Shown: positions 1-11,071 of the stretch, piece by piece | Position numbering within the stretch: the first letter of the stretch is position 1 | Layout of the letters: each line of letters starts with the position of its first letter | Virus record (IMG/VR): IMGVR_UViG_2585427732_000018 | Source of the DNA: a virus | Taxonomy: Duplodnaviria > Heunggongvirae > Uroviricota > Caudoviricetes | Strand: one strand, 5' to 3' | Length of the DNA stretch: 11,410 bases | Notes under the pieces: model-generated | Database searches by the model: none | The model's input: only the letters and a program-made list of their open reading frames with translations | Told to the model about the DNA's origin: nothing | Position numbers and translations under genes: made by a program

Positions 1-1242
1 ATGGCGAGAAAAACACACCCATTAACCACAGTGCAGATCAAAGCAGCCAGACCAGCGCAAAAGGAGTACACCCTGCAGGACGGCGGAGGGCTTTTTCTCC
101 TGGTCAAACCGTCTGGATCAAAACTCTGGAGATTTTCCTACTACCGACCATCGGACAAAAAAAGAATATTGCTGAGTTTTGGATCGCTTGAAGATGTTTC
201 CCTGGCTGATGCCAGAAAACGCCGTAGCGAGTACAGGACGTTAATCAGTGCCGGAACTGACCCGCAGGACCACGAGAGGCAAAAAAGAGAGACAGAGGCC
301 CGAAGACAAGGGAACACGTTCGAAAATGTGGCGGCGGCATGGTACCAGGTGAAAATCAGCCAGAATCTGGCCCCCAACACGATTAAAGACATCTGGCGTT
401 CGCTGGATAAATATGTATTCCCGTTCATCGGCAACACGCCAATAGATACCCTCACCGCCCGAAGGTTCGTTGAAGTGCTTACACCCATCAAGGAGCGCGG
501 CAACCTGGAAACACTCAAGCGGGTTTTACAGCGCGTTAATGAGGTAATGGATTACGCCGCCAACAGTGGGCTGATTGATGCCAATCCGGCTATGAATGTG
601 CGTAAGGCGTTTCCCTCACCTGTAAAAAAACATATGCCAACAATCCGCCCCGAACAGCTGCCGGAGCTTATGCAGGCTTTATCAGTATCGGCAACAGAAC
701 GGCAGACCAGATTACTGATTGAATGGCAGTTACTGACCGTAACCCGTCCCGCCGAAGCGTCATCAACGCGGTGGGATGAAATCAACCTGGACGCGAAGCA
801 ATGGACGATACCTGCCGGACGCATGAAGATGCGCAGGGATCACGTTATCCCGCTTTCCGGTCAGGCTATGGCGGTGCTGGAGGCCATGAAACCAATCAGC
901 CACCACCGCAATTACGTTTTCCCAAGTCTGAAAGACCCACAGCAGCCGATGAACAGCCAGACAGCTAACGCAGCATTGCGGCGTATGGGATTCGCTGGCG
1001 TGCTGGTGTCTCATGGATTACGCGCCATATTCAGCACAGCAGCGAACGAGGAAGGATTCGAGCCGGACGTAATAGAGGCGGCACTTGCCCACGTCGACAC
1101 CAACGAAGTTAGACGGGCATACAACCGGAGCAACTACATAGAAAAACGCATCGTGCTGATGCGCTGGTGGGGCGAATTTGTCGAGGCTGCGGCGACGGGC
1201 GTAACCCTCGCCAGTGGTAAAAGGGGTATCCGAGCCGTGTAG
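1..1242 (+). CDS. int: Tyrosine site-specific integrase, P4-like family
   Basis: 413 aa ORF. N-terminus (KEYTLQDGGGLFLLVKPSGSKLWRFSYY...VSLADARKRR) is typical of P4-type integrases; C-terminal catalytic motifs HGLRAIF and YNRSNY (putative catalytic Tyr) are present. Confidence 0.93.
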   Translation: MARKTHPLTTVQIKAARPAQKEYTLQDGGGLFLLVKPSGSKLWRFSYYRPSDKKRILLSFGSLEDVSLADARKRRSEYRTLISAGTDPQDHERQKRETEARRQGNTFENVAAAWYQVKISQNLAPNTIKDIWRSLDKYVFPFIGNTPIDTLTARRFVEVLTPIKERGNLETLKRVLQRVNEVMDYAANSGLIDANPAMNVRKAFPSPVKKHMPTIRPEQLPELMQALSVSATERQTRLLIEWQLLTVTRPAEASSTRWDEINLDAKQWTIPAGRMKMRRDHVIPLSGQAMAVLEAMKPISHHRNYVFPSLKDPQQPMNSQTANAALRRMGFAGVLVSHGLRAIFSTAANEEGFEPDVIEAALAHVDTNEVRRAYNRSNYIEKRIVLMRWWGEFVEAAATGVTLASGKRGIRAV

Positions 1243-1737: not shown

Positions 1738-1944
1738 ATGGAAGCAATCAGAAAAATTATCTTTCGCCAGGAAGTAAAAAAAATTATCCACATCAAGGCA
1801 GACAGCACGCTGCAAAGCATGATCAACGCCGGAGAATTTCCGCAGGGTTTTCGCGTTGGTTTACGCCGTCGCGGATGGTATGAGGATGATGTGTTGGCCT
1901 GGCAGAAAGAACGCGAACAGGAAGCACGCGGAACGGCTGCTTAA
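1738..1944 (+). CDS. alpA: AlpA-family transcriptional regulator / excision activator
   Basis: 68 aa; motif INAGEFPQGFRVGLRRRGWYEDDVLAWQ matches the AlpA-type HTH pattern (AGEFP...W...E...AW); SD AAGGTAA 8 nt upstream. Confidence 0.85.
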   Translation: MEAIRKIIFRQEVKKIIHIKADSTLQSMINAGEFPQGFRVGLRRRGWYEDDVLAWQKEREQEARGTAA

Positions 1945-2092
1945 CGGGTATCACAGATATGACAAACACGAAAAAAGCGGCCCCGATATGGAGCCGCCTT
2001 TCTGAACAATTAACCCGCTGCGCCTTATGTGTATATGATCCCAAACATAAGCACGGGGATGATAGCCGCTATCAGGCTGGTGGGCAATGCAA

Positions 2093-2281
2093 TCAGTCTG
2101 GTTCAGTTCGTTGCCATACCTGCAATGAGCGCTTTTCCCTGTATTCTTTAAGGAATTGCTCAAGGGCAAAAGCACATGGCGCGAATCTTTCTGATTCATG
2201 CTCTATCTTTCTGCGCCGTCTTTTCCGTGCCGGTGATAATGTTTTGGTCAATTCTTTATCGGTCATTGTGTTGTCCTGCAT
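2093..2281 (-). CDS. Hypothetical small basic protein (62 aa)
   Basis: ATG-initiated ORF directly downstream (minus strand) of the RHH regulator gene; contains ARKRRRRK basic patch. No family recognised. Confidence 0.3.
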   Translation of the reverse strand: MQDNTMTDKELTKTLSPARKRRRRKIEHESERFAPCAFALEQFLKEYREKRSLQVWQRTEPD

Positions 2282-2323
2282 AGCAATGCGCCGTAATACC
2301 TTACACCACGGCGCTGATGGTGA

Positions 2324-2629
2324 TTACTCTGGTTCTTTGGTCTTGCGGCGCTGGAGTTCTTCACGTGCGACAGTGACGAGCTGCCCGATCTCCTCGGCGG
2401 CTTTGATTCCGAGTTTTTCCACCTGCGCCAGTGCATCGAGCGAAGAAATCAGGGGGTTTTCTCCGCTTCCTTCTGCCTGGCGGCGGGCGATTTCACCGCG
2501 CATGGCGGTTACTATGAATCCGGCGTTGCTTTCACCGTCCAGTTTTACGGATTCCATGCCTTCAATAACATCATGCGGGATCCGAGCTGTTAGTGATTGT
2601 GATTTTGCGTTTTTTGAACCTGTAGCCAT
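2324..2629 (-). CDS. Ribbon-helix-helix-like DNA-binding protein, candidate island regulator/repressor
   Basis: Start placed at the ATG of MATGSKN because a GAGAGGA SD lies 7 nt upstream (the ORF track extends to a TTG at 2644). N-terminal LTARIPHDVIEGMESV followed by two helices fits an RHH fold. Divergent from the rightward operon. Confidence 0.55.
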   Translation of the reverse strand: MATGSKNAKSQSLTARIPHDVIEGMESVKLDGESNAGFIVTAMRGEIARRQAEGSGENPLISSLDALAQVEKLGIKAAEEIGQLVTVAREELQRRKTKEPE

Positions 2630-2651
2630 CTGTAATCCTCTCAATGAAAGT

Positions 2652-2681
2652 GTAAGACAATATACACATAAAAAGTCTTAC
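2652..2681. promoter_or_regulatory. Palindromic operator candidate GTAAGAC-N16-GTCTTAC between divergent genes
   Basis: Perfect 7 bp inverted repeat (2652-2658 / 2675-2681) located between the RHH gene start and the rightward promoter. Confidence 0.4.
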
Positions 2682-2690
2682 ATAAAAGCA

Positions 2691-2719
2691 TTGACATGTA
2701 AGCCACCTATAAATAAAGT
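2691..2719 (+). promoter_or_regulatory. Putative sigma70 promoter of the rightward (Icd-primase) operon
   Basis: -35 TTGACA (2691-2696), 17 bp spacer, -10 TAAAGT (2714-2719); followed by a structured leader (CCTTG...CAAGG and CCCCG...CGGGG hairpins) before the first Icd-like gene. Confidence 0.45.
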
Positions 2720-2825
2720 TACTTACACCTTGTTAATGCAAGGTGCAGAAACGACGAAACCCCGCACTGTAGGAGCAGTAACGGGGCTTCTAACCACCAA
2801 CGATAGCAAGATTATCGAGGCAGCT

Positions 2826-3029
2826 ATGAGAAATTATACCATACACCCGCAAGGGCGGGACTCGTACAACCTGAATAAATACATCTGGCGTTTTATCGCC
2901 CTGAGCACGGCACAACCGCGCGTGATTACCATTGAGGCCACCAGCGAACAGGAAGCACGCCAGCAATCCCCGGCTGGCTGCGTGATGGTATTCGCTGCCC
3001 GTATTCGCCAGGGGTCACATCATGCGTAA
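2826..3029 (+). CDS. Icd-like (host cell division inhibitor-like) small protein, copy 1
   Basis: 67 aa; motif YIWRFIAL...EATSEQEARQQ...VFAARIRQG characteristic of Icd-like proteins of P4-like elements; GAGG SD upstream. Hidden inside the spurious 356 aa ORF 1959-3029. Confidence 0.65.
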   Translation: MRNYTIHPQGRDSYNLNKYIWRFIALSTAQPRVITIEATSEQEARQQSPAGCVMVFAARIRQGSHHA

Positions 3030-3711: not shown

Positions 3712-4011
3712 ATGAAAAATAAAAATTCTGGCGTTACTGCCAGCGGCCCCGCTCGTCCTGAATTTATGAACGGCGATATTTACCGCGATAAATATGGCGG
3801 CATGGTAACGATTAAAGGCGTGGCAGAACGGCGCATCACCTACCGTCGTGAAGGCTACGAATATGATTGCGTGATGCCTGTTTATCAGTTTCGGCGTGAT
3901 TTTTCTCTGGTACAGGCAGCGCCCCGCAGTAAACCAACCAGCAGGGAGAAAGCACGCGCCAATATTCAGGAAATAAAAAAGATGCTTAACGTATTCAGGG
4001 GTAAAAAATGA
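3712..4011 (+). CDS. Hypothetical protein (99 aa), possibly DUF4222-like
   Basis: GGAGAA SD upstream; motif GDIYRDKYGGMVTIKGV...YRREGYEYDCVMPV resembles small proteins found beside primases in P4-like islands (family assignment from memory, unverified). Confidence 0.55.
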   Translation: MKNKNSGVTASGPARPEFMNGDIYRDKYGGMVTIKGVAERRITYRREGYEYDCVMPVYQFRRDFSLVQAAPRSKPTSREKARANIQEIKKMLNVFRGKK

Positions 4012-5756
4012 AACTGGCACCGAACGTAAAAAAACAGCCACGCGGAATAAAACACAAAGACACAGAGGTAATTATTTTCGCGGGTAGTGATGCCTGGTCG
4101 CACGCGAAACAATGGCAGGAGCAGGATGGCCCCGCATCCGGCGATAATGTGCCGCCTGTGTGGCTTGGGCCAAATCAGCTTGCCGAACTTGATGCACTGA
4201 AAATTGTTCCGGATGGGAAAAAGCGCGTAAGGCTGTACCAGGCCGGAGAACTGGATTTGGTGGAGACCAAAAAGATTGGTCAGAAGCTGGCGGCGGCAGA
4301 TATTCAGGACGCAAATTTTTACCCCGAAGGAATGCACGTCCAGAAGTGTGAAAACTGGCGGCGCTATCTGAATGCTGAGCGTGAAAATATTGCCGCAGGG
4401 CTTACCATGCCGGAGCAGAAAAATACGCAACTGGCACAAATGGCAGACAGTGAGCGCGCGCAGCTGCTTGCCGAGCGCTTTGATGGCGTTTGTGTGCATC
4501 CTGAAAGTGAAATCGTTCACGTATGGCGCGGCGGGGTATGGTGTCCGGTCAGCACAATGGAGCTGAGCCGCGAAATGGTGGCGATCTATTCAGAGCACAG
4601 GGCCACTTTCAGCAAGCGCGTAATCAATAACGCCGTGGAAGCGTTAAAAGTTATTGCCGAACCAATGGGCGAGCCGTCCGGCTATTTGCTGCCGTTCGCC
4701 AATGGTGCGCTTGACCTGAAAACGGGGGAATTTTCCCCGCACACGCCGGAGAACTGGATCACCACGCACAACGGCATTGAGTACACGCCACCAGCACCCG
4801 GGGAGAACATCCGCGATAACGCGCCAAACTTTCATAAATGGCTTGAGCACGCAGCCGGAAAAGACCCGAGCAAGATGATGCGTATATGTGCCGCGATGTA
4901 CATGATTATGGCGAACCGGTACGACTGGCAGATGTTTATTGAGGCCACCGGAGACGGCGGGAGCGGTAAAAGTACATTCACACATATAGCCAGCCTTCTG
5001 GCAGGGAAACAGAACACGGTAAGCGCTGAAATGACATCGCTTGATGATGCTGGTGGACGTGCGCAGGTTGTCGGGAGTCGTCTTATCGTCCTGGCTGACC
5101 AGCCGAAATATACAGGCGAAGGAACGGGCATCAAGAAAATCACAGGCGGCGACCCCGTGGAAGTTAACCCGAAATATGAAAAGCGTTTCACGGCGGTAAT
5201 CAGGGCGGTGGTGCTGGCGACCAACAACAACCCGATGATATTCACCGAACGGGCCGGAGGTGTGGCACGTCGTCGCGTGATTTTCCGTTTCGACAATATC
5301 GTCAGTGAGGCCGAAAAAGACAGGGAGCTACCGGAAAAGATCGCGGCTGAAATCCCTGTCATTATCCGCCGATTGCTGGCGAACTTTACCGACCCTGAGA
5401 AGGCACGGGCTTTACTACTGGAACAGCGTGACGGTGATGAAGCTCTGGCAATAAAGCAACAGACGGATCCGGTTATTGAGTTTTGCCAGTTCCTGAATTT
5501 TCTGGAGGAAGCACGCGGCCTGATGATGGGCGGCGGTGGCGATTCAGTGAAGTACACGACCAGAAACAGCCTTTACCGCGTCTATCTGGCGTTTATGGCG
5601 TACGCAGGCAGGAGCAAACCGCTAAACGTAAATGACTTTGGCAAGGCTATGAAGCCAGCCGCGAAAGTTTACGGACATGAATATATTACGCGGAAAGTTA
5701 AGGGAGTAACGCAGACTAACGCAATAACAACAGACGAGTGCGACGCGTTTTTATAA
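4008..5756 (+). CDS. Primase / replication initiator, P4-alpha-type (D5-like P-loop NTPase)
   Basis: 582 aa; Walker A GDGGSGKST and a downstream hydrophobic stretch LIVLADQ; start overlaps the upstream stop (ATGA); iteron origin immediately downstream, as is typical of satellite pri-rep genes. Confidence 0.88.
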   Translation: MKLAPNVKKQPRGIKHKDTEVIIFAGSDAWSHAKQWQEQDGPASGDNVPPVWLGPNQLAELDALKIVPDGKKRVRLYQAGELDLVETKKIGQKLAAADIQDANFYPEGMHVQKCENWRRYLNAERENIAAGLTMPEQKNTQLAQMADSERAQLLAERFDGVCVHPESEIVHVWRGGVWCPVSTMELSREMVAIYSEHRATFSKRVINNAVEALKVIAEPMGEPSGYLLPFANGALDLKTGEFSPHTPENWITTHNGIEYTPPAPGENIRDNAPNFHKWLEHAAGKDPSKMMRICAAMYMIMANRYDWQMFIEATGDGGSGKSTFTHIASLLAGKQNTVSAEMTSLDDAGGRAQVVGSRLIVLADQPKYTGEGTGIKKITGGDPVEVNPKYEKRFTAVIRAVVLATNNNPMIFTERAGGVARRRVIFRFDNIVSEAEKDRELPEKIAAEIPVIIRRLLANFTDPEKARALLLEQRDGDEALAIKQQTDPVIEFCQFLNFLEEARGLMMGGGGDSVKYTTRNSLYRVYLAFMAYAGRSKPLNVNDFGKAMKPAAKVYGHEYITRKVKGVTQTNAITTDECDAFL

Positions 5757-6044: not shown

Positions 6045-6323
6045 ATGCACACTTCAGGGAAATTTAATAAATCACTCAAAAAACGCAGAGACAGAACAGA
6101 ACCGAAATATCGCGCGTTAGACATGACAGAGCACGCTTTAAAGGTGGCAATCAGAACGATAGACCGCCACGCGGGGGAAGGATACGCGAAAGCACATCCC
6201 GAACTGATAAGCGCATTCATGACCACGACGGCGGCAAACTTTGCCACGCTGACAGAACGGGAGATTGCCGAAGCGGAACAGGTAACAACCATCAACGTTA
6301 AAACCGGAGAGGTGGAATCATGA
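6045..6323 (+). CDS. Hypothetical protein (92 aa)
   Basis: GAGGGGG upstream at about 11 nt; stop overlaps the ssb start (ATGA), suggesting translational coupling. No family recognised. Confidence 0.5.
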   Translation: MHTSGKFNKSLKKRRDRTEPKYRALDMTEHALKVAIRTIDRHAGEGYAKAHPELISAFMTTTAANFATLTEREIAEAEQVTTINVKTGEVES

Positions 6324-6742
6324 CAGCACAGATAGCCGCTTACGGGCGGCTGGTGGACGACCCGCAGGTAAAACAGACCAGCAAGGGCACACCGATGACG
6401 CTGGCGCGTATGGCGGTCCCCCTTCCGTGCAGCCAGGCAGATGACGGAACGGCGACGATGTGGTTATCCGTCCTGGCATTTGGCAGACAGGCCGAAGCAC
6501 TGGAAAGGCACCGCAAGGGTGAACTCCTGAGCGTGGCGGGTAACATGCAGATCAGCCAGTGGACTGGGCAGAACGGAGAAACGCGGCAGGGCTGGCAGGT
6601 TATCGCAGACAGTGTAATCAGTGCGCGAACGGCGCGACTGGGCGGCAAAAAAGGTCAACAGGGCCAGGCTACTGACGCGCTGAACAGGGCAAAACAACAG
6701 GCGGGGAATGATGATCCGTACGGGGATAACATACCGTTTTAA
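6320..6742 (+). CDS. ssb: Single-stranded DNA-binding protein (SSB-like OB fold)
   Basis: 140 aa; GRLVDDPQV...W..V.AFG..AE.....RKG aligns with the E. coli SSB OB fold; Gly/Gln-rich linker; C-terminal DDPYGDNIPF resembles the SSB acidic tip (DDDIPF). Confidence 0.75.
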   Translation: MTAQIAAYGRLVDDPQVKQTSKGTPMTLARMAVPLPCSQADDGTATMWLSVLAFGRQAEALERHRKGELLSVAGNMQISQWTGQNGETRQGWQVIADSVISARTARLGGKKGQQGQATDALNRAKQQAGNDDPYGDNIPF

Positions 6743-6757
6743 GCGACGAGTGACAGA

Positions 6758-6781
6758 AGCCGGAGCAATCCGGCTTTTTTA
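6758..6781 (+). terminator. Rho-independent terminator after ssb
   Basis: AGCCGGA-GCAA-TCCGGCT hairpin plus TTTTTT. Confidence 0.7.
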
Positions 6782-6835
6782 CGGGTCCTCCTGGCGGGGT
6801 GGGCCTGAACACGGGGCGGGAGGCGCGGAAAAAAG
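6782..6835 (+). other. Degenerate cos-like relic (third copy of the terminator-cos module)
   Basis: CGGGTCCTCCTGG...ACGGGGCGGGAGGCGCGG parallels 9223-9275 (CGGGTCCTTCCTGG...ACGGGGCGGCGACCTCGCGG) but the 12-nt cosN core is disrupted. Confidence 0.5.
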
Positions 6836-6997: not shown

Positions 6998-7073
6998 CAT
7001 ATGAGACTTTTTGGTGCACTGACACACATGATCGGGATCATCATTTCATAATTTGCAACACAACTCAATATCA

Positions 7074-7101
7074 TTGCACAAAATGCAATCATGATTATAA
7101 T
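7074..7101 (+). promoter_or_regulatory. Near-consensus sigma70 promoter of the capsid operon
   Basis: -35 TTGCAC (7074-7079), 16 bp spacer, -10 TATAAT (7096-7101). Confidence 0.55.
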
Positions 7102-7157: not shown

Positions 7158-7364
7158 ATGGCTGAAGAGAAAAAAGGCGGTGTTTCGGTGTACATAAGCC
7201 CCGAAATCGTGGAGGTGCTCAAGCAGCGCCACAAAAAAAACTATGAGGCTGGCGTGGCGGCTGGACTGGATCCGCTGATGACGCCGGAGCCGTCGATAGG
7301 TTCACTTGTACGCTCTTATTTACTTGCGGCGCTTGGGATGCATAAAAATTATGGGGGTGAATAA
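7158..7364 (+). CDS. Small RHH-like protein (68 aa), first gene of the capsid operon
   Basis: GVSVYISPEIVEVLKQ (beta strand plus helix) and SIGSLVRSYLLAALG (helix) suggest a ribbon-helix-helix fold; stop overlaps the capsid gene start by 1 nt. Confidence 0.5.
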   Translation: MAEEKKGGVSVYISPEIVEVLKQRHKKNYEAGVAAGLDPLMTPEPSIGSLVRSYLLAALGMHKNYGGE

Positions 7365-8419
7365 TGGCAGGCAAAGCAACGGCACTTAACACTAACCAGC
7401 TTTTCATGTACCTGAATCGCGGGGATATTGCGGATTTTAAATTCAGCCCTCTGTTTACCACGCTGTTTTTCCCGAACGTGGCGACATTCAGCACGCAAAA
7501 CATCATGCTGGATACCCTGGACATTGAAGAAGTCACCATGTCGGCGTTTTGTTCGCCTATGGTGGGTAGCCAGGTTCAGCGCGATAAAGGGTACGAAACC
7601 AGCACAATCAAACCTGGCTACATGAAGCCAAAGCACGAAATCGATCCAACGAAAACCATCATGCGCATGGCTGGAGAAGATCCGGCACAGCTTAACGACC
7701 CTACCTATCGCCGTATGCGCCTGATTACTGGCAACATGCGCCGCCAGATAAACGCCATTAAGGCACGCGTGGAATGGCTGGCGGTGAATGCGGTAACGAC
7801 CGGAAAAAACATCATTGAGGGCGAAGGCATAGAACGCTATGAAATCGACTGGAAAATACCGGAAAACTGCATCATAGAGCAGGCCAAGGGTAAAAAATGG
7901 TCCGAGCAGGATAAAGACATGCACGACCCAATCTATGACATCGAGCTTTATGCTGATCAGGCTGGTTGCCCCGCAAACGTCATGATTATGGGCGCTGAGG
8001 TATGGCGCACATTACGCAGCTTTAAAAAATTCCGTGAGCTGTACGATCTTTCCCGTGGTTCAGAATCCGCCGCCGAACTGGCCTGTAAAAACCTGGGCGA
8101 AGTGGTGAGCTTTAAAGGCTATCTTGGTGATCTGGCCCTTATCGTCTATTCCGGCAAATACACTGACAGCGATGGTACCGAAAAATATTTCCTTGAGCCT
8201 GATTTGCTGGTCCTGGGTAACACCAACAATAAAGGGCTGGTGGCCTATGGTGCGATAATGGATCAGGAAGCGGTAAGAACGGGCGCAACACAAAACATGT
8301 TTTACCCGAAAAACTGGATTGAGGACGGCGATCCGGCGATTGAGTACGTGCAGACACACAGTGCACCGCAGCCGGTACCGGCAGATATTCGCAAATTTGT
8401 TACCGTCAAAATTGGTTAA
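7364..8419 (+). CDS. Major capsid protein, phage lambda gpE-like
   Basis: 351 aa; long colinear matches to lambda gpE as I recall it: DFKFSPLF..LFF; SP.V...V.R.......IKPGYMKPKHEIDP; EDP..L.DP.YRR.R; WSEQDK..HDP..DIE.YA; RGSES....A.K.LGE.VSFKG..GD.A.IVYSG.Y; YPKNW...GDPA.E. GGGGGTGA SD upstream. Confidence 0.9.
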   Translation: MAGKATALNTNQLFMYLNRGDIADFKFSPLFTTLFFPNVATFSTQNIMLDTLDIEEVTMSAFCSPMVGSQVQRDKGYETSTIKPGYMKPKHEIDPTKTIMRMAGEDPAQLNDPTYRRMRLITGNMRRQINAIKARVEWLAVNAVTTGKNIIEGEGIERYEIDWKIPENCIIEQAKGKKWSEQDKDMHDPIYDIELYADQAGCPANVMIMGAEVWRTLRSFKKFRELYDLSRGSESAAELACKNLGEVVSFKGYLGDLALIVYSGKYTDSDGTEKYFLEPDLLVLGNTNNKGLVAYGAIMDQEAVRTGATQNMFYPKNWIEDGDPAIEYVQTHSAPQPVPADIRKFVTVKIG

Positions 8420-8431
8420 CGGGGGAATTCT

Positions 8432-8767
8432 ATGGACACTCCATACATTGAGTTATTTGCAGGCAGTCAGCAGGTATCCACGACGTTGGTACATTTTGCC
8501 GCTGATGCTGGCGTTATTCAGGAATTTACCCCGCTGATGCTGGCAGACAATGGCGAGTTTAAGCCGTGGGATGGTCAGGAATCTGGCAAGGCTGTTTATC
8601 TGACCTCGTACCCTGTGGACACGTCAAAGCAGAAATCAGCACAGTGTTACAAGACGGGGATATTCAATATTGCCGCCGTTAACTGGCCTGAGAGCGTCGA
8701 CACCGATGCGAAAAAATGCGCCGCCTTTGCGGGTTCCGGCGTATCCGTTCAGCCGCTGGCCCGATAA
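8432..8767 (+). CDS. Head decoration protein, phage lambda gpD-like
   Basis: 111 aa, about the size of gpD; conserved TPLMLAD...WDG, YKTG.F, WPES.D.DAKK.AAFAGSG motifs; GGGGGAA SD upstream. Confidence 0.8.
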   Translation: MDTPYIELFAGSQQVSTTLVHFAADAGVIQEFTPLMLADNGEFKPWDGQESGKAVYLTSYPVDTSKQKSAQCYKTGIFNIAAVNWPESVDTDAKKCAAFAGSGVSVQPLAR

Positions 8768-8779
8768 GCAGGGGGAACG

Positions 8780-9193
8780 ATGGCAACGAATGAAAGCATC
8801 ATGACGCTACCGCTGGCGAGTAAATTTAAAGCCGAAGCGCGGGCAATGGCTGACAGAGGTTTATCAACCTACGAGGCCGTATATCAACTCAACAAACTGG
8901 AAGAGCAGGACAAGCCGCGCGCTGATGCGATTATGGCGCTTCATGAGCATAAAGACTATCAGCCGCTGTTGCGTGCAATGGCAAACGTGCCTTGTATCGA
9001 TGTTGATACGGCTAAAAACATCCTGAACATGACCATAGAGCAGGAACGCCCGAAGGTTGCACCAGAGCTTACCGCAGCCTTTGAAAACTTTATGGACATG
9101 CACAGCCCACAAACCGTATCAGCTGGCATGGCATACGATGGCAGAAACCCAGGCGATGACGGCGACATCGATCGCATACTGAAAACCATCTGA
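8780..9193 (+). CDS. Hypothetical protein (137 aa), predicted helical, in the capsid operon
   Basis: Same GGGGGAA SD as the two upstream genes; followed by a terminator. Occupies the position that lambda gpFI holds after gpE, but I see no sequence similarity to gpFI. Confidence 0.6.
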   Translation: MATNESIMTLPLASKFKAEARAMADRGLSTYEAVYQLNKLEEQDKPRADAIMALHEHKDYQPLLRAMANVPCIDVDTAKNILNMTIEQERPKVAPELTAAFENFMDMHSPQTVSAGMAYDGRNPGDDGDIDRILKTI

Positions 9194-9198
9194 GACAA

Positions 9199-9221
9199 GG
9201 CCGGAGAAATCCGGCTTTTTT
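9199..9221 (+). terminator. Rho-independent terminator after the capsid operon
   Basis: GCCGGA-GAAA-TCCGGC hairpin plus TTTTTT; near-identical to the terminator at 6758-6781. Confidence 0.7.
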
Positions 9222-9222
9222 G

Positions 9223-9290
9223 CGGGTCCTTCCTGGAATTATGGCCCGTTACGGGGCGGCGACCTCGCGGTTTTTCGCTATTTATGAGCT
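9223..9290 (+). other. cos site (forward copy): cosN cohesive-end sequence GGGCGGCGACCT at 9254-9265 with lambda-like flanks
   Basis: CCCGTTACG-GGGCGGCGACCT-CGCGGTTTTTCGCTATTTATGA matches the phage lambda cos junction as I recall it; similarity to lambda stops about 30 bp to the right of cosN. Confidence 0.8.
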
Positions 9291-9398
9291 TTTTCAGGGG
9301 GGTGGTGGTGGTTTTGTTGTTTGCTCTATCTTTATGAATGAAAAGGGAAAGATGCAAACAATACACCAACCTGAAGCAGTAATTAAGTTGGTGTATTA

Positions 9399-9941
9399 AT
9401 GAAATCGCACCTGATGAACAAAAAAAACATGGCGAAAAGCTGCCGTGTAAGTGCGACAGCGTTCGACAAGTGGGGAGTGACTCCCGTTGAACGTAAAGGC
9501 CGTGAGGCGTTTTACGATGTTGCCAGCGTGATAGACAATAGGGTTAACAATGCAATTAGCCAGCTTACAAACGACAAAGGCGATATTGATGATGATGAAC
9601 TCTTACGAGTCAGGATCAGATTACTGACAGCACAGGCGGAGGCGCAGGAACTTAAAAACGAGCGCGATCGCGGTGACGTGATTGATACTGAGTTTTGCCT
9701 GTACGCGCTTTCAAAGCTGGCGAGTCAGATTTCATCAATCATGGACAGCCTCCCGCTTACTATGCAAAGGAGCTTCCCACAGATTACCCCCGCCATGCTG
9801 GATAGGCTTAAAAGGGAAGTGGTTAAAGCCTGTAATGCCAGTGCCAGAGTTGCCGACAACCTCCCACAGATACTGGCTGATTACTTGAAAGAAACAACCG
9901 GAAACGTACCGGAAAAGTTGCTACAGAAGAAAGGCGAGTAA
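9399..9941 (+). CDS. Terminase small subunit homologue (lambda Nu1-like); candidate packaging-redirection (Rpp-type) protein
   Basis: 180 aa; C-terminal two thirds (LTAQAEAQELKNERDRGDVIDTEFCLYALSKLASQISSIMDSLPLTMQRSFP) closely parallel lambda Nu1; N-terminal wHTH region is much more diverged. Alternative starts at 9414 and 9429; no strong SD for any. Confidence 0.8.
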   Translation: MKSHLMNKKNMAKSCRVSATAFDKWGVTPVERKGREAFYDVASVIDNRVNNAISQLTNDKGDIDDDELLRVRIRLLTAQAEAQELKNERDRGDVIDTEFCLYALSKLASQISSIMDSLPLTMQRSFPQITPAMLDRLKREVVKACNASARVADNLPQILADYLKETTGNVPEKLLQKKGE

Positions 9942-9964
9942 CAGACGCGCAATTATTGAACAAA

Positions 9965-10163
9965 ACTGAGAAACGACATGAAAGCGTCATAAATCGCCAT
10001 TTTAGATGATTACCGTGTCGTTTCTTTTTATTGTGTATCTATTTAAAAACAAATAGTTATGTTCGAGAAGTACCGACATGCTTTTTCCAGAAAAATTTTC
10101 ATAAACAGATAAAAACCGCGAGGTCGCCGCCCCGTAACGGGCCATAATTCCAGGAAGGACCCG
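9965..10163 (-). other. cos site (inverted copy) with lambda-like cosB architecture; cosN core at 10121-10132 (minus strand)
   Basis: 10111-10163 is the exact reverse complement of 9223-9275 (53 bp). Read on the minus strand, the flank continues with ATCTGTTTATGAAAATTTTTCTGG, an R3-like TCGGTACTTCTCGAACATAACT, an AT-rich TTGTTTTTAAATAGATAC and an inverted repeat AGAAACGACA/TGTCGTTTCT (9969-9978 / 10016-10025), resembling lambda R3-I1-R2-R1. Confidence 0.75.
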
Positions 10164-10196
10164 ACGACACCAGACTATCAGAGCGATGGGGGCACA

Positions 10197-10478
10197 ATGA
10201 CAGAAGCCGAAATACTGGGATTAATCCGCCGTGCTGGTGGAATCAGCCAGCAGACTGACGAACAGGCCACGCAGCCGGACAGCGTGACAGCCGAAAATTA
10301 TGCGCGTGTTGTTGCTGAGGTGATGCGCCGTGATGGTATCCAGCTTAATGATGTGGATATGCGCAACATACGGATCCGCGTTCTTGAAATGCTGGCCTAC
10401 CGTCGCCGCGTGCAGACGTACAGGGAAAAAGCAAAAATTACGTACCACTGGAAGAAGCCGGAGCGGTTACGGCGGTAA
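10197..10478 (+). CDS. Hypothetical protein (93 aa)
   Basis: GGGGG SD upstream; lies between the inverted cos and the right-end repeat array. No family recognised. Confidence 0.5.
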   Translation: MTEAEILGLIRRAGGISQQTDEQATQPDSVTAENYARVVAEVMRRDGIQLNDVDMRNIRIRVLEMLAYRRRVQTYREKAKITYHWKKPERLRR

Positions 10479-10647: not shown

Positions 10648-11071
10648 AATTTCCACAGACTGCGGAAATTGGCGCGGTAACTTACTGAGATTAAAGCAAA
10701 GCGCAAAATTGCGCTGGCTGGTGGGCATGATGCCGATATGGTGATCCCCATAACGGAAATATCCACCAGCACGGCAACGGCAGAATAGCCACAACACAGA
10801 AAAACCACGAATATGGGGTTTTTGTTATGGCATGGGCATGATGACCGCCCCTGCTCTGAATGGTGGAAATCACCACGCAGATCATCCACCAGCTTCGTTT
10901 TTATAAATTAAACATCCGGGAAAATCCGACCCTGAATTGTGCATTTTTTCAGCAAATCATTTTAGTTATACGTTTGGTTATACGGTTTAAAAGTTGAATC
11001 ATATACATTATTTTAAATCATGAAGTTACACGCTCAATTAAACTACTCTCGTGCCGACCAAAAATCCCAAG

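Follow-up and report, generated by a model that had tools for sequence, protein, structure and literature searches.

A complete classical PICI of the EcCICFT073 type carries a conserved capsid operon with lambda gpE-, gpD- and Nu3-like genes

The window analysed here, a stretch of 11,410 nucleotides, is a complete classical enterobacterial PICI of the EcCICFT073 type, about 11.3 kb long and located at tRNA-Pro beside yejM/yejO, and its positions 7158-9193 are the conserved capsid operon of this type of island. The operon consists of four co-oriented genes on the + strand, coding for proteins of 68, 351, 111 and 137 aa (Table 1). The module is already known, as the capsid and decoration genes of a PICI were described and knocked out in 2018. 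Taking the whole of the evidence, we think it probable that this PICI capsid operon builds or joins full-size lambda-type heads and is redundant with the shell of the helper.

Table 1. Features of the island, with positions in the window and the evidence for each.
Feature	Position	Strand	Evidence
Tyrosine integrase, P4-type with arm-binding domain, island left end	1..1242	+	PF00589, PF22022, PF13356
AlpA-like small HTH regulator	1738..1944	+	PF05930, E=0.0035, under curated cut-off
Primase/replicase	4008..5756	+	D5_N (7e-16), DUF5906, Pox_D5; phrog_864 DNA primase, 1.7e-169
Single-strand DNA-binding protein	6320..6742	+	PF00436, 4.9e-15
Terminator-like hairpin and degenerate cos-like relic (cos0)	6759..6830	+	31-nt direct repeat, 94% identical to 9200-9230
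68-aa protein, directly upstream of the capsid gene	7158..7364	+	phrog_3255 (function unassigned), 8.5e-46
Major capsid protein, lambda gpE family (HK97 fold), 351 aa	7364..8419	+	PF03864 Phage_cap_E, E=5.5e-50
Head decoration (cement) protein, lambda gpD family, 111 aa	8432..8767	+	PF02924 HDPD, 5.1e-18
137-aa protein, homologous to the lambda Nu3/gpC C-terminal part	8780..9193	+	phrog_1999, 2.7e-65
Intrinsic-terminator-like hairpin, GCCGGA-GAAA-TCCGGC then T6	9200..9221	+	Read from sequence
cos1	9223..9294	+	cosN 12-mer GGGCGGCGACCT at 9254-9265, exact lambda cosN
Nu1-type small terminase subunit (TerS), full length, 180 aa	9399..9941	+	PF07471, 2.3e-23
cos2, inverted copy of cos1	10092..10163	-	72-nt inverted repeat, 92% complementary; exact cosN at 10121-10132
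93-aa conserved protein, last gene of the late region	10197..10478	+	phrog_1561, 6.3e-56
Probable attR core, copy of the tRNA-Pro 3' end (CTCTCGTGCCGACCAAA)	11046..11062	+	17-nt exact match

The window runs from the start codon of the integrase to the attR core and a flanking remnant of yejO. Related islands sit beside tRNA-Pro, between yejM and yejO, and in one of them, L001, from which the tRNA-Pro 3' end used for the attR comparison was taken, the integrase lies about 220 bp downstream of tRNA-Pro. The element is small, within a class range of about 10-15 kb, has a tyrosine integrase at one end and occupies a specific chromosomal site. An AlpA-type regulator is followed by a co-oriented primase/replicase module, the AlpA match being weak (RefSeq labels the orthologue of this gene an HTH regulator) and the primase match strong. 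The late region holds a capsid homologue, terS and cos sites, without portal, TerL, tail or lysis genes. Sid, Psu and Delta were absent from the Pfam and PHROG matches of the window ORFs, so that nothing points to a P4-like element.

The original prediction, made from the letters of the DNA, was that this satellite encodes its own gpE-like and gpD-like proteins, and both assignments were confirmed by matches to PF03864 and PF02924 above the curated cut-offs. The capsid protein matches PF03864 over its full length (residues 28-349; 170.7 bits for a cut-off of 22.9) and gives an almost complete alignment with lambda gpE that contains just 2 gaps (43% identity over 327 aa, E=5e-92); the match to the solved lambda gpE (7VI9) reached 1.6e-80. 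The decoration protein also matches its family over the full length (65.7 bits, curated cut-off 29.1), shows 36% identity to lambda gpD (E=3e-13) and matches the solved chains 1TD0 (1.7e-13) and 1C5E/7VII (about 4e-9). A structure of the same capsid family was found in the PDB: 3BQW (351 aa) scored 771 bits with the window capsid protein, from which it differs by about a dozen substitutions, and it carries the CFT073 residue wherever the window and CFT073 capsid proteins were seen to differ. 3BQW is therefore the EcCICFT073 capsid protein, already crystallised, which was deposited as 'putative capsid protein of prophage' (E. coli CFT073) and not as a satellite protein.

A scaffold-like gene is also present: by profile comparisons, the 137-aa protein, left without assignment in the original prediction, shares homology with the C-terminal part of the head-assembly (scaffolding) protein Nu3/gpC of lambda. 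The protein has two copies of the Nu3 repeat motif and matches, besides its own family, the C-terminus of phrog_53 (3.8e-9); reciprocally, residues 117-200 of lambda Nu3 match phrog_1999 (2.7e-26). A phmmer search with the 137-aa protein among 1.84 billion proteins reached the Nu3-like protein P0008 (9.4e-6), which is 47% identical to Nu3 and is matched by the profile of the 137-aa family at 1e-18. Direct similarity to lambda is weak (BLASTP against gpC, E=0.1; hhalign against Nu3, probability 2%), and the homology to Nu3 thus rests on the PHROG profile cross-matches and on P0008 as a bridging protein. A tblastn search with the 137-aa protein of 50,697 phage records gave no match, and a comparison of the family profile with solved structures found none. 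Some NCBI records call it 'phage head-tail connector protein', a name that has no NCBIfam or Pfam model behind it; NCBIfam gave no match for any late protein. The Nu3-like gene is not universal in these modules, as its slot is taken by an unrelated 77-aa gene in a relative from Salmonella, and the version in a helper-embedded relative from E. coli is shortened to 115 aa.

For portal, protease and TerL, no Pfam or PHROG match was obtained among all window ORFs, nor was there one for head-tail connectors or HNH in any of them, and the only unassigned ORF of sufficient size, of 356 aa, has no family match. The proposal that portal, protease, scaffold and large terminase are all lacking therefore held for portal, protease and TerL and failed for the scaffold, given the Nu3-like protein.

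The first gene of the operon, coding for the 68-aa protein, ends in a TAA stop that overlaps the ATG of the capsid gene (TAATG), and the two genes appear to be translationally coupled. It was found directly upstream of the capsid gene in every case, the Salmonella island included. The protein had no Pfam match up to E=10 and no NCBIfam match up to E=0.1. Its AF2 model (pLDDT 72) has two helices (residues 15-34 and 47-58), for which the best fold match in the PDB by Foldseek (E=2.9) and a match to a NikA RHH fragment (E=4.1) were not significant. These comparisons did not confirm the RHH-like label that the original prediction gave to the gene. In a promoter scan, shuffled controls had more sigma-70-like sites than the actual sequence, in which one weak site was placed at 7045-7074.

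Just 3' of the 137-aa gene lies the intrinsic-terminator-like hairpin, whose repeat partner (6759-6780) belongs to the cos0 relic; there, GGGCGGGAGGCG follows the repeat at the place where cosN has GGGCGGCGACCT. The cos1 site aligns with the lambda left end and has the same position as cos1 of EcCICFT073. The TerS gene is located between the two inverted cos sites, and its product shows 35% identity to lambda Nu1, almost to the Nu1 C-terminus, with N15 gp1 (46%) as best phage match. A TerS-type late region like that of the window is also found in islands of E. coli O157:H7.

The four-gene module was matched in 598 of 5,426 complete E. coli genomes (about 11%), with at least 80% coverage in 592, and among the matches listed all four genes were annotated in every one. 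Estimated at dS up to about 1, dN/dS ranged from 0.085 to 0.156 for the capsid gene and from 0.025 to 0.12 for the decoration gene; such low values (about 0.1) indicate that the two genes are functional and maintained by selection. In Salmonella, where the context is a single case, the capsid protein has 351 aa and aligns gap-free with 68% identity. A search for the locus with the capsid protein in one genome per species returned nothing usable. Identity to phage proteins among the 50,697 records never exceeded 47.5% for the capsid protein, 45% for the decoration protein and 46% for TerS, and these three proteins appear to form a satellite-specific lineage.

EcCICFT073, the model Gram-negative PICI (Fillol-Salom et al. 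2018, 2019), shares with the window the island build of integrase, alpA, primase and ssb, both cosN sites and the order of the late region: 68-aa gene, capsid, decoration, 137-aa gene, cos1, packaging-specificity gene, inverted cos2 and 93-aa gene. Protein identities are 68% for the 68-aa gene, 97% for the capsid (c1499), 98% for the decoration (c1500), 94% for the 137-aa and 86% for the 93-aa protein. The two islands differ in the packaging-specificity slot, which holds the 180-aa Nu1-like TerS in the window and the 144-aa RppA (rppA) in EcCICFT073, without similarity between them; in the integration site, which is tRNA-Pro/yejM-yejO in the window and roxA/phoQ in EcCICFT073, with different integrases; and in a gene of the PerC family, located between ssb and the capsid operon in EcCICFT073 and lacking in the window.

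The published tests concern this island, which is of the Rpp type, and three helpers only, namely lambda, phi80 and CFT073 phage 4. Helper-dependent induction, replication and high-frequency transfer were experimentally shown for EcCICFT073 only (PMC6092414). Fillol-Salom et al. named and deleted c1499 and c1500 in 2018; deletion of either gene did not relieve lambda interference and did not affect island transfer, an island with c1499::cat transferred well, and the packaged DNA, reported for a lambda lysogen, was phage-sized throughout (PMC6092414). When genes downstream of ori were over-expressed singly, lambda was blocked by rpp only (PMC6739421). Reviews agree with these results (PMC6893505, PMC10111431, PMC10085698), and a search of the available literature for later functional work on these PICI capsid-module genes returned nothing relevant. 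The idea of an intermediate strategy that had escaped recognition was thus overtaken by the description of the module in EcCICFT073, with capsid, decoration and 137-aa proteins 94-98% identical to those of the window. The original prediction had itself named dispensability of the satellite gpE for transfer as evidence against it, and this is what the c1499 deletion revealed (PMC6092414).

According to the explanation that we favour, a lambdoid cos helper would induce the island, and the island proteins would form or join full-size lambda-type heads, presumably nucleated on the helper portal and processed by the helper protease. The Nu1-like TerS of the island would bind beside cos1 and recruit the helper large terminase, and about four island genomes (about 45 kb) would be packaged per head; four copies of the island, at about 11.3 kb each, indeed add up to 93% of the length of the lambda genome. 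The helper gpE and gpD would be able to supply the same shell, making the module redundant in laboratory crosses, and deletions may well be without phenotype because of this redundancy. The null deletion phenotypes fit equally well with a role unrelated to the making of transducing particles. A role of this kind would be the poisoning of capsid assembly in other phages, beyond those tested, by incompatible subunits, decoration protein or scaffold, or else a regulatory or decoy function. PICI late regions typically carry interference genes, HK97 is insensitive to rpp, which leaves room for further interference functions (PMC6739421), and the module is conserved, yet a transfer phenotype is absent. 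We nevertheless consider such a role very unlikely, as single over-expression of the module genes left lambda plaques undiminished (PMC6739421), the deletions did not relieve interference (PMC6092414), and a gpE homologue that is full-length and gap-free and comes with its matching cement protein resembles a building block more than a poison.

The module had also been proposed as a likely determinant of capsid size, and a small-capsid role is contradicted by the results on the EcCICFT073 orthologues with lambda; for EcCICFT073 with phi80 or CFT073 phage 4 no size effect was reported (PMC6092414). A Ccm-like redirection, in which the capsid, the cement and the scaffold-like partner would make, or bias assembly towards, heads of small size (T=3 or T=4), fitted to one or two 11 kb genomes and excluding the helper genome, is very unlikely in our judgement. 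Orthologues with 97-98% identity package phage-sized DNA only, and their deletion left interference and transfer unchanged; nothing obvious in the near end-to-end, two-gap alignment with lambda gpE suggests an altered geometry; and the island length of about 11.3 kb comes very close to a quarter of a lambda headful, as expected for multimers in full-size heads. These points have to be weighed against the precedents of Ccm (PMC6893505) and PmCI172 (PMC6092414), against the fact that the published tests cover an Rpp-type island and the window island is of the TerS type, and against the strong purifying selection, which shows that some function exists. Selection on the module is compatible as well with a back-up role, silent with a healthy helper, that would allow packaging when the helper capsid gene is missing, interrupted, repressed or targeted, for instance in PICIs inside helper gene E, with defective prophages as helpers, or under defences and rival satellites that act on the helper capsid. 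Helper-embedded PICIs of this family are often integrated in gene E and carry their own E homologue, the capsid gene being the commonest late gene of Gram-negative PICIs (PMC10111431); the embedded island L005 keeps a diverged but intact module, and a shell, cement and scaffold-like set, each below 48% identity to its phage counterparts, suggests a self-consistent assembly unit. However, the window island sits at a tRNA site and not inside a prophage, the redundancy is called non-essential by the authors of PMC10111431 themselves, and the argument is purely inferential, so that we rate a back-up role as unlikely; it would provide a selective rationale for the redundant capsid operon that we prefer and not an exclusive alternative to it.

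More tentatively, and with clearly more doubt than belief, the capsid, decoration and Nu3-like genes, with the coupled 68-aa gene, may be a self-sufficient shell kit, by which the satellite would make lambda-type heads on a stolen portal. If so, the strategy would be 'half capsid-forming', placed between that of classical PICIs and that of cf-PICIs, and of benefit only when the helper capsid is defective, interrupted or attacked, or with other natural helpers, where head size could possibly be changed. Models for satellite detection already treat the capsid and decoration genes as a core PICI component, and a PDB entry exists for the capsid protein. The present results sharpen the puzzle, since the module occurs in about 11% of E. 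coli genomes, is under strong purifying selection, belongs to a putative satellite-only lineage and is accompanied in E. coli by a Nu3-like assembly protein, yet has no known phenotype. A condition in which it matters would tell whether classical PICIs are partly capsid-forming; such a condition might be a helper whose E gene is defective or interrupted, a defence aimed at the capsid, or another helper.

Compared with the lambda head genes, the capsid, decoration and TerS genes of the window belong to the same families, with 43% (E), 36% (D) and 35% (Nu1) identity, and the similarity of the 137-aa protein to Nu3 covers the C-terminal repeat and tail, the N-terminal half of Nu3 having no counterpart in it. 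The gene order is E, D, Nu3-like in the island and C/Nu3, D, E in lambda, D preceding E in four phage records that were checked, and the island lacks the portal, protease domain, TerL, W, FI and FII of lambda. The cf-PICIs (EcCIEDL933; Alqurainy et al.) share with the window the int-alpA-rep backbone and an own capsid protein and small terminase; however, they have in addition genes for portal, maturation protease, head-tail connectors, HNH and TerL and produce small capsids of their own, and membership of the window in this group is ruled out by the absence of portal, protease and TerL. Ccm of SaPIbov5 is, like the window gene, a satellite-encoded HK97-fold homologue of the helper capsid protein in a cos-packaged island; it has 23% identity to the helper protein, and both small capsids and interference depend on it (PMC6893505). 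Neither activity was seen for the EcCICFT073 orthologue, and Ccm has no decoration or scaffold-like partner, unlike the window capsid gene. Small heads are also produced by the Pasteurella island PmCI172, which has a capsid homologue (PMC6092414).

The + strand carries a single co-oriented series of genes in the six-frame ORF list, running from a tyrosine integrase to the end of the late region (see the table). In close E. coli relatives the insertion point lies between yejM and yejO, about 220 bp downstream of a tRNA-Pro, and the 3' end of the tRNA is duplicated as a 17-nt copy at 11046-11062; taken together, the copy and the insertion site give an island of about 11.3 kb, essentially all of it within the window. 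Relatives vary in the early region around 1959-3029, and the break of the whole-window match into pieces (94% coverage) probably falls there. A 356-aa ORF at 1959-3029 (+) matched no family and overlaps a stretch annotated by RefSeq in relatives as truncated Icd-like pseudogenes, where the other strand carries a YlcI/YnfO-family gene (window 2324-2644, -).

Features of the island and its flank, in window coordinates
Feature	Coordinates	Strand	Remarks
Tyrosine integrase	1-1242	+	ORF list and family matches
AlpA-like regulator	1738-1944	+	ORF list and family matches
DUF4222 gene	3712-4011	+	ORF list and family matches
D5-type primase	4008-5756	+	ORF list and family matches
SSB	6320-6742	+	ORF list and family matches
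Late region	7158-10478	+	ORF list and family matches
68-aa gene	7158-7364	+	ORF list
351-aa capsid gene	7364-8419	+	ORF list
111-aa decoration gene	8432-8767	+	ORF list
137-aa gene	8780-9193	+	ORF list
Terminator-like hairpin	9200-9221	+	3' of the 137-aa gene
cosN 12-mer, exact lambda	9254-9265	+	
Nu1-type small terminase, full length	9399-9941	+	PF07471, 2.3e-23
Second cosN, inverted	10121-10132	-	
Conserved 93-aa gene	10197-10478	+	phrog_1561; end of late region
yejO autotransporter remnant	final 250 bases	opposite	

The original prediction described the four ORFs at 7158-9193 as a lambda-type shell module lacking the rest of a head module, and the ORF list places them exactly at its coordinates. 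The 351-aa protein matched Phage_cap_E in Pfam (5.5e-50) and phrog_29, "major head protein" (1.5e-107), and is 43% identical to lambda gpE across 327 residues with two gaps, while the 111-aa protein matched HDPD (5.1e-18) and the solved decoration-protein chains 1TD0, 1C5E and 7VII, with 36% identity to lambda gpD; the predicted gpE-like and gpD-like assignments are thus both upheld. Portal, prohead protease domain and large terminase, said to be missing, indeed gave no match in any window ORF with Pfam or PHROG. The module order is E then D (7364-8767), the reverse of lambda, where D precedes E, as it also does in four phage records in which both genes were located. The TAA stop of the 68-aa gene overlaps the capsid ATG (TAATG), and this gene also sits beside the capsid gene in Salmonella. 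Its label as RHH-like was not demonstrated, as the protein had no Pfam or NCBIfam match and a fold search with an AF2 model of moderate quality, showing two helices, returned nothing significant.

The fourth gene had been listed as unknown, and its kind is recognisable as the Nu3/gpC C-terminal region. Lambda Nu3 is a head-assembly protein nested within the C-terminus of gene C. The 137-aa protein matched phrog_1999 (2.7e-65), as do residues 117-200 of lambda Nu3 (2.7e-26), and a further match fell at the C-terminus of phrog_53, a family of head-maturation proteases (3.8e-9). When 1.84 billion representatives were searched exhaustively with phmmer, just nine clusters matched, among them P0008, a 195-aa bridging protein (E=9.4e-6; 1e-18 with the 137-aa family profile). 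P0008 shares 47% identity with residues 115-176 of lambda Nu3 and gave matches of 1e-30 to 1e-44 to PHROGs for scaffold and capsid assembly. Direct comparison of the 137-aa protein with lambda was weak, so that its Nu3 homology is profile-based and transitive; the evidence for it is consistent throughout, including the C-terminal tail common to both sides (FENFMDMHSPQTVSAG / FEQFMQQHSPAPVQAG), and the family profile points to a Nu3 repeat present twice in the island protein. In several NCBI entries the protein is called "phage head-tail connector protein", a name with no NCBIfam or Pfam model behind it, while the profiles lead to Nu3/gpC. The gene is less constant than the rest of the module, with 137 aa in the window, 115 aa in a helper-embedded relative and an unrelated 77-aa gene in its slot in a Salmonella island.

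Downstream, the small terminase is 35% identical to lambda Nu1, reaching the C-terminal end, and its closest phage relative is N15 gp1 (46%). Its gene is flanked by a 72-nt inverted repeat, 92% complementary (9223-9294, + / 10092-10163, -), within which both exact lambda cosN sites sit in opposite orientations. The 93-aa protein beyond the second site belongs to a PHROG whose function label is "unknown". The capsid operon is also bracketed by a 31-nt direct repeat, 94% identical, made of a terminator hairpin, a T-run and CGGGTCCT, with copies within 6759-6830 and 9200-9270. After the upstream copy comes a degenerate cosN-like stretch (GGGCGGGAGGCG in place of GGGCGGCGACCT), apparently a dead relic of a third cos copy, which may be a trace of how the capsid module was acquired.

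Among the 5,426 complete genomes of E. coli, 598 had a match to the module (coverage at least 80% in 592). The module is under purifying selection: dN/dS is 0.085-0.156 in the capsid gene, 0.025-0.12 in the decoration gene (dS up to ~1 for both) and ~0.24 in the 137-aa gene. Across 50,697 phage genome records, no capsid protein exceeded 47.5% identity, no decoration protein 45% and no TerS 46%; the capsid, decoration and Nu3-like proteins lie at roughly the same distance from all their phage counterparts. Judged by these sequences, the module is a satellite-specific lineage. The Salmonella island (GCA_044187915.1, locus 9001-11714) keeps the small, capsid and decoration genes, with a second integrase upstream; its capsid protein has 351 aa and 68% identity to that of the window with zero gaps, its decoration protein 53%. 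The helper-embedded PICI, within a prophage (NZ_CM143727.1, locus 1777-11992), has lambda-like head-completion genes (FI, head-tail joining) on one side and P2-like baseplate/tail genes on the other, and its module copy shows 81% nucleotide identity and includes a Rpp-sized gene.

The window capsid operon is the module of EcCICFT073, whose capsid protein is PDB 3BQW ("putative capsid protein of prophage"). Gene order matches (68 aa, capsid, decoration, 137 aa, cos, 144-aa gene, inverted cos, 93 aa), with protein identities of 68% (68-aa), 97% (capsid), 98% (decoration), 94% (137-aa) and 86% (93-aa). The sole differing late gene is that for packaging specificity, the 144-aa RppA in CFT073 versus the unrelated Nu1-like TerS in the window; E. 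coli O157:H7 islands have the same TerS-type late region. The inverted cos arrangement, around rppA, was published as the functional sites cos1 and cos2, in work that named c1499 the capsid protein and c1500 the head decoration protein (PMC6092414, Fillol-Salom et al. 2018).

The original prediction took the module as a likely capsid-size determinant, in the manner of the staphylococcal Ccm, an idea explicitly put to the test on EcCICFT073 (PMC6092414). In a lambda lysogen with the island, only phage-sized DNA was packaged; lambda plaquing was not restored, nor was transfer affected, when c1499 or c1500 was deleted; and an island with c1499 replaced by cat was transferred better than a tetA-marked island. 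A 97% identical orthologue of the satellite gpE is therefore dispensable for transfer, and a review concurs that EcCICFT073 uses full-size capsids despite encoding a capsid homologue (PMC6893505, Dokland). When late genes were expressed singly, rppA alone blocked lambda (PMC6739421, Fillol-Salom et al. 2019). Size redirection by the island capsid is improbable, and conceivable just for helper/island pairs outside the published assays. A full-length gpE homologue, crystallised as a folded protein, together with its matched cement protein and Nu3-like partner does not look like a poison or curvature modifier.

The identity of the module's parts is secure, and we infer the manner of their use. 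Together the three proteins look like a coherent shell-building set, which would build full-size lambda-type heads, or join them, on the helper portal with the helper protease, while the island TerS would direct the helper large terminase to cos1. Four 11.3-kb units make ~45 kb, 93% of the lambda genome, the island being a quarter of that length. The lambda terminal cos is cut only once the head is ~75-105% full, in agreement with the phage-sized DNA that was reported. The null deletion phenotypes would be explained if the module were redundant with the shell proteins of the helper. The selective benefit may come with defective or interrupted helpers, such as those with helper-embedded PICIs inserted in gene E (PMC10111431), and may also arise under capsid-targeting defences or with helpers other than those assayed.

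In conclusion, the predicted observation is real and its interpretation right in part, and given the published EcCICFT073 work it is a rediscovery of what was already known. New here is the reading of the fourth gene as Nu3-like, and the remaining interest lies in the role of this shell module, which is widespread, under selection and owned by the satellite. Of the 29 reference Gram-negative PICIs, 21 have capsid genes, which their transfer does not require (PMC10111431), and a capsid component and terS are among the five core PICI components of SatelliteFinder (PMC10085698).
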